Positions 27,702-57,578 of a stretch of 64,000 bases of DNA are shown piece by piece (the stretch's first letter is position 1; every line of letters begins with the position of its first letter). This DNA is from a virus. The notes under the pieces are model-generated. The model saw nothing but the letters and a program-made list of their open reading frames with translations. It did no database searches and was not told the DNA's origin. The position numbers and the translations under genes were made by a program. The stretch is from the IMG/VR virus record IMGVR_UViG_3300025886_001957, positions 14,463 through 78,462 of that record. One strand, 5' to 3'.

Positions 27702-27896
27702 TTAATTAAAGATTTCAAAACCTTCGTCAATTAGATCTCGATATTTTTGTTCTGCTTCGGCGTCTTCGTCAAACTCCATCGAAAATTGCCATTCAATATC
27801 TTCCCAAAAATCAAAAAGAGTTTTAGGATCTTTTTTTGATCCAGTAATAGAAACACTACATAACCCTTTTTGTAGTATAATCATCTTTTTATTCAT
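27702..27896 (-). CDS. Hypothetical protein
   Basis: ORF track. Confidence 0.5.
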   Translation of the reverse strand: MNKKMIILQKGLCSVSITGSKKDPKTLFDFWEDIEWQFSMEFDEDAEAEQKYRDLIDEGFEIFN

Positions 27897-27966
27897 ATCA
27901 ATATCTTCTTTGTTGTTTGCGTTATATGTAACTTACTACATAATAATATAGAAGTCAAGAAGTTTT

Positions 27967-28050
27967 TGGTGGGCGATCCAGGAATCGAACCTGGCGTGCG
28001 TCTCCGCGGAGGATTTACAATCCCCTGTCACACCTTGTAACATATCGCCC
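27967..28050 (-). tRNA. tRNA-Tyr (GTA)
   Basis: GGGCGAT/ATCGCCC acceptor stem, TT-GTA-AA loop, long variable arm, GGTTCGATTCC, encoded CCA. Confidence 0.92.
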
Positions 28051-28055
28051 ATATT

Positions 28056-28146
28056 TGGCAACCCGTTAGCCGCATGTCTTTTGGACGGACACATCTGACC
28101 CCTACGCTATGTAGGATTTGTTTCACATAGTAGAATGCCACGGGTC
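28056..28146 (-). ncRNA. CCA-terminated structured RNA with an acceptor-like stem but no T-loop
   Basis: GACCCGT/ACGGGTT stem + G + CCA, two internal hairpins; lies between two tRNAs. Confidence 0.55.
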
Positions 28147-28170
28147 CACAGCATTGCTCTACTTTGTATT

Positions 28171-28244
28171 TGGCATCGGTGCAGGGAGTCGAACCCCGGC
28201 TTTCAGTTTTGGAGACTGACGTGCTACCGTAACACTTCACCGAC
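28171..28244 (-). tRNA. tRNA-Trp (CCA)
   Basis: GTCGGTG/CACCGAT stem, TCAGT-CTCCAAA-ACTGA arm, GGTTCGACTCC, encoded CCA. Confidence 0.95.
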
Positions 28245-28465: not shown

Positions 28466-28500
28466 TATTTATATAATACACTATTATTTGATGATGTCAA
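28466..28500 (-). promoter_or_regulatory. Overlapping sigma70 (TTGACA-N16-TATTAT) and late (TATAAATA) promoters for the leader/tRNA unit
   Basis: Both motifs read directly from the sequence. Confidence 0.7.
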
Positions 28501-28507
28501 CCTTTAT

Positions 28508-29065
28508 TTAATGCCACTGAGGTCCGTGTACCCATCCAACTAAACTATAACGTATACCTTCGGTCACTGGTTTAACTTGATGAAATACATAGCTTGGAAA
28601 CACAATCATATCACCTTTATTGAGTTTTGCTGTCTGAATACGGTCAGGTATATCAGGTGCTCCGTTTTCTGTTTCAAACTCGCCACCTTTAAAATCGTCA
28701 TTAAGTAAAATTGTAAAACTTACTTTGCGTACAGTCTCTCGAGTAAAGTCTAAATGATTATCAGTATGCCATCGATAATTTTGCTCTTTTTTACCATCGT
28801 ATTGTGTAAATTGTAATGGTTCTAAGAGGTCAATATTAAAATGCCAATGCTTGTTATTTGCTGTTTGTACTACTTTAGATATAACTTTTAGCAATGGTCC
28901 TGTTTTTTCAGATAATTCAATCCAACTTATATCACTATCACGTTGGCTATGATCGTCGGTACATGTAGCAGTTTCAATAGCAGGTGCAAGTTTATGAGTT
29001 AAATCAATAAGATCTTGATCAAAAACGTTTTTATATACTATATGGGTTAAACTTCGTATAGTCAT
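28508..29065 (-). CDS. 2OG-Fe(II) oxygenase (PKHD/prolyl-hydroxylase-like)
   Basis: WHTD, KGGEF, FPSYVFHQV, RYSLVGW. Confidence 0.9.
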   Translation of the reverse strand: MTIRSLTHIVYKNVFDQDLIDLTHKLAPAIETATCTDDHSQRDSDISWIELSEKTGPLLKVISKVVQTANNKHWHFNIDLLEPLQFTQYDGKKEQNYRWHTDNHLDFTRETVRKVSFTILLNDDFKGGEFETENGAPDIPDRIQTAKLNKGDMIVFPSYVFHQVKPVTEGIRYSLVGWVHGPQWH

Positions 29066-29721
29066 CTAAGTTTTCCTTTAAATCCAGGAGGTACTGCTAA
29101 CGACATTCTACCGTCAAACAGATTGTTTGTTCCGTAAGGACCGTTAACATCATTATAATGTAAAAATACCTGGGCATGCCTTGTTCCTTGAAATTTTTCT
29201 CTCCAATGTTCAATCTCTTCACCTTTATACACTATCATATCTCCTGGATTTAGATATATCGGAGTGCCTGTATTTCCAACTTCTCCCGAACCATCGACCC
29301 ACATTGGCCAATTATATGTTTTGTCATCATTTTCATAACCTATACACAATGTAGTTGAAATTTCACACGATGGTCTATCTTTATGCCTCTCTAAGGTGTC
29401 GCCATTTTTATATAGACGCCAGTAGGAATAAGTTGGTGCTAATTGAAGTCCTGTGGTTTTTTCTAACACTGAAGCAGACTTGCCTAATAATGCTTCCATT
29501 ACACCGTCAGCATAACAGGAATATGTATCAACTACCTGTGGATCATTAAATCCGCCGTCAGTTTCTGGTCGATAATATTCATAATTATTATTTAATAATA
29601 AACTTGCTCTACCAGACCTTAATAAACAATAATTGTAAATAAATTCAGTAAACTCTTTAGTGAGAAAATTTCTCACTACTGCATAATTATGTTGTTTAAA
29701 AAATTCTTGATCAGTTGACAT
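29062..29721 (-). CDS. 2OG-Fe(II) oxygenase-like protein (marine-phage type)
   Basis: HKDRPSCEIS, GDMIVYKG, EHWR, QVFLHY. Confidence 0.78.
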   Translation of the reverse strand: MSTDQEFFKQHNYAVVRNFLTKEFTEFIYNYCLLRSGRASLLLNNNYEYYRPETDGGFNDPQVVDTYSCYADGVMEALLGKSASVLEKTTGLQLAPTYSYWRLYKNGDTLERHKDRPSCEISTTLCIGYENDDKTYNWPMWVDGSGEVGNTGTPIYLNPGDMIVYKGEEIEHWREKFQGTRHAQVFLHYNDVNGPYGTNNLFDGRMSLAVPPGFKGKLR

Positions 29722-29732
29722 TGATTATCCTT

Positions 29733-30596
29733 TTAATAGCTTTGAGCAAGTCGCCACATTAAATATTCTTTTGATTCAATTGGCGGATAGTGCGGCGATT
29801 CGTGAAATCGCAAGTTTTCTACTATAGTTCCAGGTGTAGGATCTACAAAGTGCGGCATACTGTAACGTGGCAAATGTATATGACTGTTTACAACTCTGTG
29901 TTTAGTTGATTTAAAATAATTATTTGTCCATCGTTGTAGTAAATCACCAATGTTTACAACCACGCCATTATCAGCATAAGGAACAGGATGCCAGTTACCT
30001 TTAATATCTTGTACTTCCAATCCGGGTACGTCATTAATTTGCCAAAGCAATGTAATAGTTCCATAGTCACTATGTTCTCCAATTCTCATTTGGCGATCGT
30101 TAATATGACCATCATATGCCGGATAATGAATTACTCTTGTAGTATTAAAAGGTTTTAAATGTGCATCAACTAATGTAGTTCCACATTTGAGTATTTGATC
30201 AAATCTCTCTAATATTCTTAGTGTAAGTTTGTCAGCTACATTAATACTTTCAAGTGCTGTTGCTTTAAAGTTTGGCAACTCAGTCGGCCATAAATGATTT
30301 GGCATACGTTGGTTATTATAGTTAAAACTTTCTTTCATATCTTTTGGAGCAGTTGGGTCAACATTTTCGGCCCCCATAATACTATAGCCTAAATTAGTAT
30401 CACCTTCATACGGATATTTGTTTTTAATTTTAAGATCAAGTTCGAAGAAATTTTTCATTTCGTCAAACCAACAGTTTATATCAGATTGTTCTGTGTCGGT
30501 TAAGCAATTGGTAAAAACAGCAAATCCAGTACTAGTATATGCATCTTCAATATGTTGATCTGAGTACGAAGATTTAAAGTCAATCACCGGAATCAT
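29733..30596 (-). CDS. Isopenicillin-N-synthase-family 2OG-Fe(II) oxygenase
   Basis: HSDYGTITLL, VNIGDLL, STKHRV, RYSMPHF. Confidence 0.9.
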   Translation of the reverse strand: MIPVIDFKSSYSDQHIEDAYTSTGFAVFTNCLTDTEQSDINCWFDEMKNFFELDLKIKNKYPYEGDTNLGYSIMGAENVDPTAPKDMKESFNYNNQRMPNHLWPTELPNFKATALESINVADKLTLRILERFDQILKCGTTLVDAHLKPFNTTRVIHYPAYDGHINDRQMRIGEHSDYGTITLLWQINDVPGLEVQDIKGNWHPVPYADNGVVVNIGDLLQRWTNNYFKSTKHRVVNSHIHLPRYSMPHFVDPTPGTIVENLRFHESPHYPPIESKEYLMWRLAQSY

Positions 30597-30778
30597 TTTT
30601 TATGTTCTTTCTTTTCTTTAATACAATTATTAATTAATTGCTTTTGGTCTCTAATCAATTTTTGTTGATTCTCTAATTCTATATATTGTTTATCAAGTTC
30701 TGATAATTGTGGGAATTCAATAATTTTAGTCATATTATTCCTTTCATAATAGTAGTAGCCCTTAGGGCTACTACACAC
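30593..30778 (-). CDS. Hypothetical coiled-coil protein (start uncertain)
   Basis: ORF track. Confidence 0.45.
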   Translation of the reverse strand: MCSSPKGYYYYERNNMTKIIEFPQLSELDKQYIELENQQKLIRDQKQLINNCIKEKKEHKK

Positions 30779-30784
30779 TTTTTA

Positions 30785-31858
30785 TTATTGTGGTACTTTT
30801 GCATCAATACCTTTGACATAGTATTGCATACTGTCAAGATGTGCTCTATCGGCAATCTCGCCATCGGCTAATACTTGGTTACCTTGATTGTCCCAAAGAG
30901 GACCAGTAAATGCAAAGTATTCACCGTCACGAATTGCATCATGTACTTCTTGTGCTTTTGCAGCTACGTTGGCTGGCATATTTGTAAATGGTGCCATTTC
31001 GACAGAACCATCATTCATATGACCAAAATATGTTCCAGTTTTCCATGTTCCGTTAATAACTTGTCCTACCTTTTCAATATAGTATGGACCCCAGTTATCA
31101 ATAGTTGCTGTTAGCTGGGCATCAGGAGCAAATTGACTTTGGTCACTTGCTTGACCAAATCCTACTTTGCCCATTTTTTCTGCTGTTTGTAACGGCGCTG
31201 GAGAATCGGTGTGTTGTGCAATAACATCACAGCCTTGACTCATTAGTGCTCTTGCTGCATCAGATTCTTTACCTGGGTCGTACCAAGTCATAACCCATAC
31301 AATATCAATATCCACATCAGGATTTACAGTTTTTGCTCCTAAGTAATAGGTATTAATTTCACGAATTACTTCTGGAATTGGATAGGCTGCAACATAGCAA
31401 ATTTTATTTGTCTTGGTCATCATACCTGCAATTACACCTTGGACGTGACGAGCTTGATAAAGACGTAGACCGTAGTTTGCAAAATTAGGACCTGATTTGT
31501 AACCAGTTGCGTGTTCAAACTTTACATTTGGAAATTGTTTTGCAACTTTTTCCATAGCATTCATATAACCAAACGATGTTGCAAAAATAATATCATGGCC
31601 GCTCATGGCCATTTGTCTAATAACTCGTTCAGCATCTGGACCTTCAGATACACTTTCAATGTAAGTAGTTTCAACTTGGTCACCGTATGCTGCTTCTACT
31701 TGTTGACGACCGATATCATGACGATATGTCCATCCATGGTCTCCAACTGGTCCAACATACACAAATCCAACTTTAACTTTGTCAGATCCTGCAGATGCTG
31801 ATGATAATGATACTATTGATACAAGTGCAATAGTTAAGATATTTGTTAGTAAATTCAT
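30785..31858 (-). CDS. BMP-family ABC transporter substrate-binding protein (purine-nucleoside type)
   Basis: Signal peptide; GPVGDHGW, IFATSFGY, WYDPGKE, DVIAQHTDS. Confidence 0.9.
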   Translation of the reverse strand: MNLLTNILTIALVSIVSLSSASAGSDKVKVGFVYVGPVGDHGWTYRHDIGRQQVEAAYGDQVETTYIESVSEGPDAERVIRQMAMSGHDIIFATSFGYMNAMEKVAKQFPNVKFEHATGYKSGPNFANYGLRLYQARHVQGVIAGMMTKTNKICYVAAYPIPEVIREINTYYLGAKTVNPDVDIDIVWVMTWYDPGKESDAARALMSQGCDVIAQHTDSPAPLQTAEKMGKVGFGQASDQSQFAPDAQLTATIDNWGPYYIEKVGQVINGTWKTGTYFGHMNDGSVEMAPFTNMPANVAAKAQEVHDAIRDGEYFAFTGPLWDNQGNQVLADGEIADRAHLDSMQYYVKGIDAKVPQ

Positions 31859-32340: not shown

Positions 32341-33078
32341 TTATTTTTTCCATAACCAGTCATCATTATTACCATCATTATGATAGTTTTGTAAACTTCC
32401 CCAGCATTTATAACCTAATGATTGTAGATACGCAAATTCTTGACTTGAACTTGTTTCGCTATGGCTATTTTCAGATATAATTACTGCATTATTGTTTACA
32501 ATAGTTTGCTCGGCACCTTTTAAACATTCTAAATTAAATCCTTCAGTGTCAAGTATAAGAAGGTCGAGTCGCGGTAGATTAAAGCTATCAAGTGGCATAG
32601 CCTGTACATCAATAGTTTTCTCAATTTGTATATTATTCATATACGGATCTGGACTGACAAAGCGATGTTGTCCAGTAGATAAACAATTATATGAAGGAGC
32701 ATTAACAACTTCAAATTGACGTAACCCTGGTGTATCACTTAGACCCATTTGATATTTTAAAACATTATCTTGTTGACAGTTTTTATTTAAACAGAAAAAG
32801 TTTAATGGATCAGGTTCAAAGGTGTATACCAAATTAAACATAGTTGATAGTAAAAATGGATATACTCCTTGCCAGCCTCCGGCTTGTACAGCTACGCCTC
32901 TTTCGGCAACATGTTCAATAATTGCTTTATCAAATTTATTAACCCAATCATGACGTATATTATTAAACGTAAAAAATTCTGGATTTTCGCCGGCAAGTGT
33001 CCATGGACCCCAGTTGTAAATCGGATGCCAATGAGTATAAGTTAATGCATCATATGTTTTAAGGGCTGATACTTGCAA
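32341..33078 (-). CDS. FkbM-family SAM methyltransferase
   Basis: VQAGGWQG, YTFEPD, LILDTEG. Confidence 0.85.
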   Translation of the reverse strand: MQVSALKTYDALTYTHWHPIYNWGPWTLAGENPEFFTFNNIRHDWVNKFDKAIIEHVAERGVAVQAGGWQGVYPFLLSTMFNLVYTFEPDPLNFFCLNKNCQQDNVLKYQMGLSDTPGLRQFEVVNAPSYNCLSTGQHRFVSPDPYMNNIQIEKTIDVQAMPLDSFNLPRLDLLILDTEGFNLECLKGAEQTIVNNNAVIISENSHSETSSSQEFAYLQSLGYKCWGSLQNYHNDGNNDDWLWKK

Positions 33079-56608: not shown

Positions 56609-56998
56609 TTATTTTTGTAGTAATATTTTAAAGTTTAGTTGCAATCCCTTGTCACCAGCAGCAAACACCTCGGGCTTTGTGATACGAGATACTTTTGATT
56701 TGTTTTCTGGTTTTTGTTGAAACTGAGAAAATGCATAACTTATTTCAGTTTCCATAATATTTTTAAATCTAAATGCTCTATCGCATTCGCAGAGTATTTG
56801 AAAATTCCAACTTGATTGAGTTTTAGTTTTTTCGTATACTGGTTCACCAAGAATTATATCAACAAACTTAACACCTTGACGAGAGGCTCCTCTAAGTGAT
56901 TGTTTAATTATTTCTCCAACAACAGTTTTAGTCGCTAGATTAATTGCCTGTTGTTTTGCTTCTCTATGTGAAGCACTTAAAGATTTAAAAAATCCCAT
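56609..56998 (-). CDS. Hypothetical protein
   Basis: ORF track. Confidence 0.55.
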   Translation of the reverse strand: MGFFKSLSASHREAKQQAINLATKTVVGEIIKQSLRGASRQGVKFVDIILGEPVYEKTKTQSSWNFQILCECDRAFRFKNIMETEISYAFSQFQQKPENKSKVSRITKPEVFAAGDKGLQLNFKILLQK

Positions 56999-57009
56999 GT
57001 ATGTAAGCC

Positions 57010-57358
57010 CTCGTAGTCGGCACTTCTGTTGCCAGGCAGTACCCGCCCCGGAAAGCCTATTTAGGCTGCCATTGCCATGTCTGGCGCATAATTGTCATTT
57101 GCAATTATAGTTGTTGACCAATAACGCAGTCATCCGGTAAACTCCACTCTATCTTCACACTGGTCGATCCTATTTCGGCCCCATCAAAGATACACTATCC
57201 TGCCTCCTCTTAACATTTAGTTAAGTATCAACAATCAGGTTCAAAACATCTCGCAATGTCAGTTTTATCAACTACTAAGTAGCATAGTATATCTATGGTG
57301 GAGCCGTCCGGTACCGCCCCGGAGTCCCATATGTGTCCATTTTGCTTCAACATTTACA
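57010..57358 (-). ncRNA. ssrA: Circularly permuted (two-piece) tmRNA
   Basis: Acceptor piece ending GGCTCCACCA at 57296; coding piece starting GGGGCCGAAATAGGATCGAC at 57182; tag ANDNYAPDMAMAA* at 57102..57061; outer ends approximate. Confidence 0.92.
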
Positions 57359-57362
57359 AGTA

Positions 57363-57393
57363 TATTTATATATTAATTTATGGGTATTGTCAA
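57363..57393 (-). promoter_or_regulatory. tmRNA promoter: TTGACA-N17-TATAAA overlapping a late TATAAATA
   Basis: Both motifs read directly from the sequence. Confidence 0.75.
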
Positions 57394-57578
57394 GTCTCAA
57401 TGGCATCTTTTAATGTACATTTATATTCAACAGCATCCCATCTACCATCTGGTGGTATTAATTGGTATATTGGGAGCATGTCATAACAATCTTGTTTAGA
57501 ATCAAACCACTGTACATCTTGTGTAATACAGTCCGATTGTAAACAAACTGTTAGCAATATGTGCCACATTATTTCCAT
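57390..57578 (-). CDS. Small secreted protein with four Cys
   Basis: ORF track. Confidence 0.55.
   Translation of the reverse strand: MEIMWHILLTVCLQSDCITQDVQWFDSKQDCYDMLPIYQLIPPDGRWDAVEYKCTLKDAIET

Follow-up and report, generated by a model that had tools for sequence, protein, structure and literature searches.

The tRNA operon of an uncultured marine phage carries a 115-nt unit that very probably specifies a conserved structured RNA with a tRNA-type 3′ end. The unit lies in the 64,000-nt stretch of DNA analysed here (the window), which is part of a 96-kb, AT-rich IMG/VR record. A reading made from the letters of the window alone (the sequence-only reading) had pointed to a 7-bp acceptor-like stem followed by a discriminator G and an encoded CCA inside a tRNA cluster. 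These features are indeed present on the minus strand: GACCCGU pairs with ACGGGUU, the G and the CCA follow, and the element sits between tRNA-Trp(cca) and tRNA-Tyr(gta), both encoded on the same strand. Taken as a whole, the locus is best read as the gene for a non-decoding structured RNA, a tRNA mimic that is transcribed with the phage tRNAs and bears a tRNA-type 3′ end, an interpretation that we consider about evenly balanced between right and wrong. There is precedent both for stable RNAs other than tRNAs in phage tRNA clusters and for tRNA mimicry by viruses. What is new is the family itself, which is absent from Rfam 15 and of which we found no description in the literature searched, together with its predicted leader-built pseudoknot and its setting in marine large phages.

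CheckV puts the source record at 26% completeness, and among cultured phages no DNA ligase exceeds 34% identity to the one it encodes. Uncultured relatives of the phage number in the hundreds, with records of up to 268 kb. The features of the unit and its operon are collected in Table 1, where p denotes the position within the unit and equals 28171 minus the window coordinate. The neighbourhood also contains genes of other kinds. A run of auxiliary-looking genes occupies 28508–31858 (minus strand) next to the tRNA operon, with two proteins of the 2OG-Fe(II) oxygenase family (28508–29065 and 29733–30596, minus strand) and a Bmp/PnrA-like substrate-binding lipoprotein (30785–31858, minus strand), and an FkbM-type methyltransferase is encoded at 32341–33078. 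Further away, at 56970–57397 (minus strand), lies a circularly permuted (two-piece) tmRNA of alpha-proteobacterial type with the tag peptide ANDNYAPDMAMAA (ARAGORN; Rfam alpha_tmRNA, 131.8 bits), an unusual phage cargo which hints that the host is alphaproteobacterial. The downstream tRNA-Tyr gene is called by ARAGORN, scores below the Rfam tRNA gathering score and gives a sub-threshold tRNA-Sec-like match of 35.3 bits.

Table 1. Window coordinates of the conserved unit, its parts and the surrounding tRNA operon.
Feature	Unit positions	Window coordinates	Strand	Basis or remark
Whole conserved unit, 115 nt	p1–115	28056–28170	−	Alignment of 8 distinct homologs
Leader, 24 nt	p1–24	28147–28170	−	Begins directly after the tRNA-Trp CCA
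Acceptor-like stem P1, 5′ strand	p25–31	28140–28146	−	GACCCGU
Acceptor-like stem P1, 3′ strand	p105–111	28060–28066	−	ACGGGUU
Discriminator G and encoded CCA	p112–115	28056–28059	−	G at 28059, CCA at 28058–28056; conservation stops here
Body strand pairing back to the leader	p32–47	28124–28139	−	
Hairpin H2	p56–70	28101–28115	−	CCUAC/GUAGG
Long arm P3	p71–103	28068–28100	−	9-nt loop CGUCCAAAA at 28079–28087
tRNA-Trp(cca), upstream, same operon		28171–28244	−	ARAGORN; Rfam tRNA, 58 bits
tRNA-Tyr(gta), downstream, 5 nt past the unit's CCA		27967–28050	−	ARAGORN
Promoter-like site heading the tRNA operon		28500–28473	−	TTGACA-16-TATTAT, 11/12 matches (consensus scan)
Terminator-like hairpin heading the tRNA operon		28356–28327	−	12-pair stem, then a T run (consensus scan)

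Homologs were collected by several searches. BLAST of the 91 nt first proposed as the element, run against 160 related loci, returned one copy, in L016. A junction-based pattern scan of metagenome contigs gave nine loci, one of which (L170) is the L016 contig again, and a leader-based scan of viral contigs added one more, more divergent copy, L175. Three scans of viral contigs, with interior, leader and 3′ patterns, were positive beyond the window only on the L016/L165 and L175 contigs; when a pattern of the acceptor strands only was applied to viral contigs, three of the four matches were chance hits inside GC-rich coding sequence. The resulting alignment (A2) comprises eight distinct sequences from marine virus and metagenome contigs, most of them at least 85% alike. 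L167, L171 and L172 are identical within the unit.

The limits of conservation are sharp. It starts right after the CCA of the upstream tRNA and ends at the unit's own GCCA, which is invariant in all eight sequences. Median pairwise identity is 88% within the unit but falls to 64% over the 80 nt before it and to 56% after it. The 91-nt extent originally assigned to the element was too short: the 24-nt ‘spacer’ before it is nearly invariant in all homologs regardless of the upstream tRNA, and because it is conserved as well as the body, the unit is taken as 115 nt. An upstream tRNA abuts every copy, its isotype varying among Trp, Gly, Ser-UGA, Ser-GCU and Cys; the unit directly follows tRNA-Trp in the window, in L016 and probably in L166. 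The sequences downstream all differ, being a tRNA-Tyr, Pro, Gly, Thr or Cys gene, an ORF or a promoter-like TTGACA...TATAAT. A conserved reading frame is ruled out by three 1-nt deletions in the L173 unit.

A covariance model of the family (CM R1) scores the unit at 112–145 bits. Applied to the window, 80 ligase-linked relatives and five whole related virus records, it found no further copy; one 74-nt match, at E 0.75, was not counted as a copy. The unit is absent from a related 268-kb genome that is 75% complete, and in close relatives, with ligases 94–97% identical to that of the window, tRNA-Trp is immediately followed by tRNA-Tyr, without the unit. Since most relatives lack it, the unit is dispensable, that is, accessory. 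BLAST against cultured phages matched only the tRNA-Trp portion. Pattern scans of about 186,000 bacterial and archaeal genomes yielded no copy, one scan giving 0 matches and the other 13, which were judged to be chance matches as they showed no similarity beyond the pattern itself.

Covariation supports the acceptor stem, the P3 arm and a helix between leader and body. P1 (p25–31/105–111) is 100% paired in the eight sequences. Its pair 26/110 is A-U in three, G-C in three and G.U in two of them, and pair 25/111 is G.U in five and G-C in two; in L173 one base pair has been deleted on both strands, leaving an acceptor stem of 6 bp. The leader pairs with the body through p3–12/38–47 (HA) and p17–21/32–36 (HB′). 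HA is 95.8% paired and contains one double change; at its pair 8/42, A-U is replaced by U-A in L169 and by G.U in L175. HB′ is 100% paired and shows only one-sided changes, U.G to C-G, in two sequences. The computed energy of the leader:body duplex lies between −11.9 and −15.1 kcal/mol in all eight, the divergent L175 included.

Because the 5′ strand of the acceptor stem sits in the loop of the leader helix and pairs with the 3′ end, the predicted topology is that of an H-type pseudoknot, with HB′ as S1, p22–24 as the 3-nt loop L1 and P1 as S2. No nucleotide separates p31 from p32, as can be read directly from the sequence. Given this missing gap and the short L1, stacking of the leader stem (5 bp) on the acceptor stem (7 bp) is possible and would make 12 bp, which is the length of the acceptor/T arm of a tRNA. 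The leader probably belongs to the fold, and for this reason, together with the predicted pseudoknot, both the boundaries and the interior fold of the sequence-only reading needed revision. Two other pairings were tried here and set aside. A leader hairpin of p17–24/29–36 pairs well, but it clashes with the covarying acceptor stem, and only its lower 5 bp were kept; an extension of the acceptor stem (p32–34/101–103) was dropped in favour of p71–74/100–103, which has a compensatory change.

In the interior, the long bulged hairpin proposed earlier (p38–46/59–69) turned out to be the weakest part of that fold. It is 87.5% paired across the homologs, and each of three upper pairs is mismatched in two or three of the eight sequences; the leader:body helix and hairpin H2 fit the same nucleotides better. 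H2 (p56–60/66–70) is 97.5% paired and has no double change, so that its support is moderate, and the L167-type copies (L167, L171 and L172) contain an A.C mismatch in it. Nowhere does the unit vary as much, in sequence and in length, as in the 4–5-nt loop of H2 (AUAGC, AUUGC, ACAGC, AGUGC, UCAG and UCCG), which is what a loop under no constraint would show. Read on the plus strand, the complement of H2 followed by ATTTGTTTCA (28101–28124) scores as terminator-like; with no plus-strand gene leading into the site, this score most likely just reflects the hairpin of the RNA itself.

The small GUGUC/GACAU hairpin fared better: it covaries at three pairs, and we extend it into the long arm P3, with a lower stem (p71–74/100–103, obtained from RNAalifold), an internal loop and an upper stem (p78–83/93–98). 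The three doubly changed pairs of the upper stem define two alleles, GUGUC/GACAU and GCACC/GGUGU, and in the lower stem a C-G pair has become U-A in L175. The P3 loop holds U-CCA-A or U-CCA-U in all eight versions.

The complete model has 36 pairs that are 98.3% paired across the alignment, and six doubly changed pairs spread over four helices. None of 500 shuffles reached this result, and slid partners paired at 29–49%. Because the alignment has eight sequences, most of which share 85% identity or more, the independent changes behind each helix number one to three. G.U pairs are numerous and are valid only when the tRNA strand is read, which identifies it as the strand of the RNA. Relative to shuffled sequence, folding energy gave z = −0.7 for the 91-nt and −0.6 for the 115-nt extent, no better than chance, so the case is carried by conservation and covariation and not by stability.

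The two P3 alleles have a history of their own. Of the 115 nt of the unit, 96 show no difference between the window and L016, and the 9 differences all fall in the remaining 19, spanning p80–96 and confined to the upper stem and loop of P3 (28073–28093, minus strand; L016:469–489). Outside the unit, the ligases of the two contigs are about 79% identical and their tRNA-Trp genes widely different. Across the family the stem alleles do not track the rest of the unit sequence. Being out of step in this way points to recombination, and suggests that P3 is a small exchangeable module that has been swapped between copies.

The element is not recognised as a tRNA or as a member of a described RNA family. 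ARAGORN with default settings called no tRNA at 28056–28146, and its relaxed (-ps and -ps80) and mitochondrial (armless) modes found 0 genes in all eight homologs. Rfam 15 gave no match over the element at E ≤ 10, whether 601 nt or 126 nt were searched (the latter with the laxest filters), and the Rfam tRNA clan (RF00005) was likewise negative on the element at that threshold. Of the features of a tRNA, the unit has the acceptor stem, the discriminator base and the 3′ CCA; ARAGORN and Rfam detected no D-arm, no 5-bp anticodon stem with a 7-nt loop and no T-arm with a GTTCRANNC-type loop. The view of the sequence-only reading that this is a CCA-ended tRNA mimic and not a tRNA is upheld by the covarying acceptor stem, the invariant G73-CCA and the lack of a detectable T-arm or anticodon arm.

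Several other identities were considered. The GUAGAGCA within the leader resembles a tRNA D-arm, and no consistent cloverleaf could be built from it. Ribozyme readings (HDV-like/theta, hammerhead, hatchet, pistol and twister) had no Rfam match at E ≤ 10. By inspection, the helix order does not suit an HDV-like fold, because a P3 cannot be accommodated between the 5′ strand of P2 and the 3′ strand of P1, and the hammerhead core is absent. An attP or integration site was rejected because the 3′ half of a tRNA, with its T-arm, is missing and because covariation that respects G.U pairing speaks for an RNA.

Marine metatranscriptomes also contain the element: in two runs of one study, assembled contigs cover it, which speaks to its presence and not to its ends, strand or level. 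One such contig is identical to the window over 28066–28156, another matches the L169-like variant, and a third (X15 record 2, 28054–28197) joins the body, the leader and the start of tRNA-Trp. The X15 and X16 contigs do not cover the flanking protein genes at 27793–27947 and 28475–28600, an absence that carries no weight. Depth in these RNA libraries is high on tRNA-Tyr, where the contigs differ from the window at 4–8 positions in the listed pieces.

The nearest known counterparts by position are rnaC (species 1) and rnaD (species 2) of phage T4, which like the unit are small non-tRNA genes placed directly after a tRNA in a phage cluster and on the tRNA strand. The parallel with T4 drawn by the first reading thus stands for the place in the operon, but it does not extend to homology: CM R1 run with filters off on T4 68500–74500, which includes both genes, returned only noise (at most 5.3 bits), and its best match overlapping rnaC scored 2.5 bits (E 9.3). 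There are differences in detail as well. T4 rnaD is encoded as far as ...CACC, then A; rnaC keeps a canonical GGGTTCGAATCCC T-arm, as judged by eye, whereas the marine phage RNA has none; and the gap between rnaD and rnaC is 6 nt, compared with the 24-nt leader of the marine unit.

In predicted architecture, the closest likeness is to the tRNA-like structures of plant RNA viruses (TYMV; Rfam Tymo_tRNA-like and TLS-PK), which form their acceptor arm with a pseudoknot, so that its 5′ side runs on into further RNA, a topology that fits the fold proposed for the unit; an NCCA end is common to both. Those structures form a genome terminus, whereas the phage RNA would be a free-standing small RNA within the tRNA operon of a DNA phage, and its pseudoknot partner, unlike theirs, is the 5′ leader. 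The Rfam models of these structures gave no match to the unit at E ≤ 10. To our knowledge, pseudoknotted tRNA-like structures of this kind have so far been described only from the genome ends of plant RNA viruses. Plant-virus tRNA-like structures are recognised by RNase P (PMC11143913). A third comparison is with the C4 antisense RNA of phages P1 and P7, likewise a phage-encoded non-tRNA, the 5′ end of which is made by RNase P (PMC11143913). C4 is encoded in an immunity region and the marine unit in a tRNA operon, with neither an Rfam match nor an antisense target found for the latter.

The canonical tRNA-Trp encoded 24 nt upstream of the 91-nt body shares with the unit a 7-bp acceptor stem, G1.U72, G73, CCA and a loop with U-CCA-A; unlike it, the unit has no D-arm, T-arm or T-loop, and its UCCAA arm is misplaced. 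Aberrant tRNA-like genes occur in related arrays too. Four tRNA-Trp(cca) genes of 85–86 nt (L082:4755–4839, L002:101–185, L003:3552–3636 and L175:9865–9950) include a variable region of 13 nt, which gives them a class-II-like shape not normally seen in bacterial tRNA-Trp. The long tRNA-Trp of L082, L002 and L003 occupies the place that the 74-nt tRNA-Trp and the unit have in the window, and in L175 it lies directly before the unit. ARAGORN also reports tRNA-Ile(tat) genes of 92–94 nt (L010:3841–3934 and L166:297–388), far over the normal length of tRNA-Ile, which may be further aberrant or intron-bearing tRNA-like genes.

How might such an RNA be made? The case for its maturation by the tRNA machinery to a tRNA-like 3′ end combines four features: an acceptor stem that covaries, a G-CCA that never changes, a place in tRNA operons and a tRNA-like spacing to the neighbours. 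Release from the polycistronic transcript would fall to host tRNA-processing enzymes: RNase P would cut ahead of G25 (28146), inside the 3-nt loop of the pseudoknot, and the 3′ end would arise in the same way as those of the adjacent tRNAs. The leader may then remain base-paired as a second strand, or may remain uncut. Substrates of this sort have precedent, as RNase P cuts pseudoknotted tRNA-like structures as well as the phage non-tRNA RNAs C4 and M3 (reviewed in PMC11143913).

Decoding is unlikely, since a T-arm is missing from the unit and the one loop that resembles an anticodon loop is misplaced. The product may instead be a tRNA mimic that binds a tRNA-handling protein and does not enter the ribosome, candidate partners being a host defence nuclease that targets tRNAs or an aminoacyl-tRNA synthetase. 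The main identity elements for bacterial TrpRS are G73 and the C-C-A anticodon. Given the G73, the U-CCA-A/U loop and an array usually shared with tRNA-Trp, a mimic of tRNA-Trp is the most specific guess, and most plausibly it is tRNA-Trp that is mimicked, although these hints are circumstantial. The U-CCA-A motif was noticed post hoc and could equally be a T-loop-like U-N-C-R-A. Nor would the mimicry be strict, in view of the 6-bp acceptor stem of L173 and the A.C mismatch in H2 of the L167-type copies. A role as a decoy would be plausible; bacterial defences that cut tRNAs in the anticodon loop or the CCA tail, and phage tRNAs that evade them, are documented (PMC10264068, PMC11555353, PMC12851939). 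Any one specific function is at best unlikely to be the right one. A fuller version, in which the phage RNA would be a pseudoknotted tRNA-like structure of a DNA phage, cut by RNase P into two strands that the leader helix keeps together and either charged with Trp or acting, by its CCA tail and Trp-like loop, as a sponge for a host immune nuclease or toxin that attacks tRNA tails or anticodon loops, must be seen as a long shot.

Four alternatives compete with the tRNA mimic. The best placed, though still improbable, is an antisense regulator in the manner of the C4 RNA of P1 and P7, released by RNase P and pairing through its loops with phage or host mRNA. A CCA-ended acceptor-like stem suits an RNase P substrate, the invariant single-stranded segments (p48–55 and the UCCAA loop) could serve for pairing, and the two P3 alleles resemble a swapped specificity module. 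However, an exact-complement search of the 96-kb record, about a quarter of the genome, found no stretch of 12 nt or longer that is complementary to the unit, the four 11-mer complements are about what chance predicts, and the Rfam C4 model did not match.

Slightly less probable again is a working, heavily rewired tRNA-Trp, which TrpRS would charge by way of its acceptor stem, its G73 and a P3 loop serving as CCA anticodon loop, and which would read UGG. It would account for the U-CCA-A or U-CCA-U that every version retains, for the discriminator G and the G1.U72 found also in the adjacent tRNA-Trp, and for the presence of a tRNA-Trp gene in the same array in six of the seven contexts with enough upstream sequence; in L016, L167 and L173 an extra closing pair (U.G or U-A) even yields a 7-nt loop, GUCCAWA. 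Yet two alleles have U at position 37, the others have loops of 8–9 nt, and the UCCAA arm adjoins the 3′ strand of the acceptor, the position of a T-arm and not of an anticodon arm. The missing T-arm and T-loop, the negative results of the armless mitochondrial mode and of Rfam tRNA (E ≤ 10), the 6-bp stem of L173 and the canonical tRNA-Trp already encoded alongside count against it as well.

We give the same low standing to a cis-acting element that guides cleavage of the polycistronic tRNA precursor by RNase E or RNase P and is then degraded. In its favour, the unit always abuts the CCA of the upstream tRNA, and the leader starts with AAUA, as does the sequence after other tRNAs of these arrays. 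Against this, most related arrays do without the unit, the upstream isotype varies, there is sometimes no tRNA downstream, and the acceptor stem, which covaries and is followed by an invariant G-CCA of its own, speaks for a matured product and not for a spacer. A decaying tRNA gene or functionless remnant of tRNA recombination, which would explain the location in a tRNA array and an acceptor stem as the only part kept, is disfavoured and very improbable, given the excess of identity in the unit over its flanks, its occurrence in at least eight different contexts, the compensatory changes in four helices and the co-conservation of a leader that is not tRNA.

The tRNA mimic therefore remains our preferred reading of the locus. 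That phage tRNA clusters contain a few stable RNAs other than tRNAs was recognised 50 years ago. The family described here adds an unrelated new example, from abundant uncultured marine large phages, which has clear boundaries, natural variants and a testable fold. In the conflict over tRNA cutting, a conserved RNA that has retained the acceptor end of a tRNA alone, perhaps with an anticodon-like loop, suggests itself as a candidate decoy, and it would offer a compact natural scaffold for asking how a tRNA end built from a pseudoknot is read by RNase P, the CCA-adding enzyme and synthetases.
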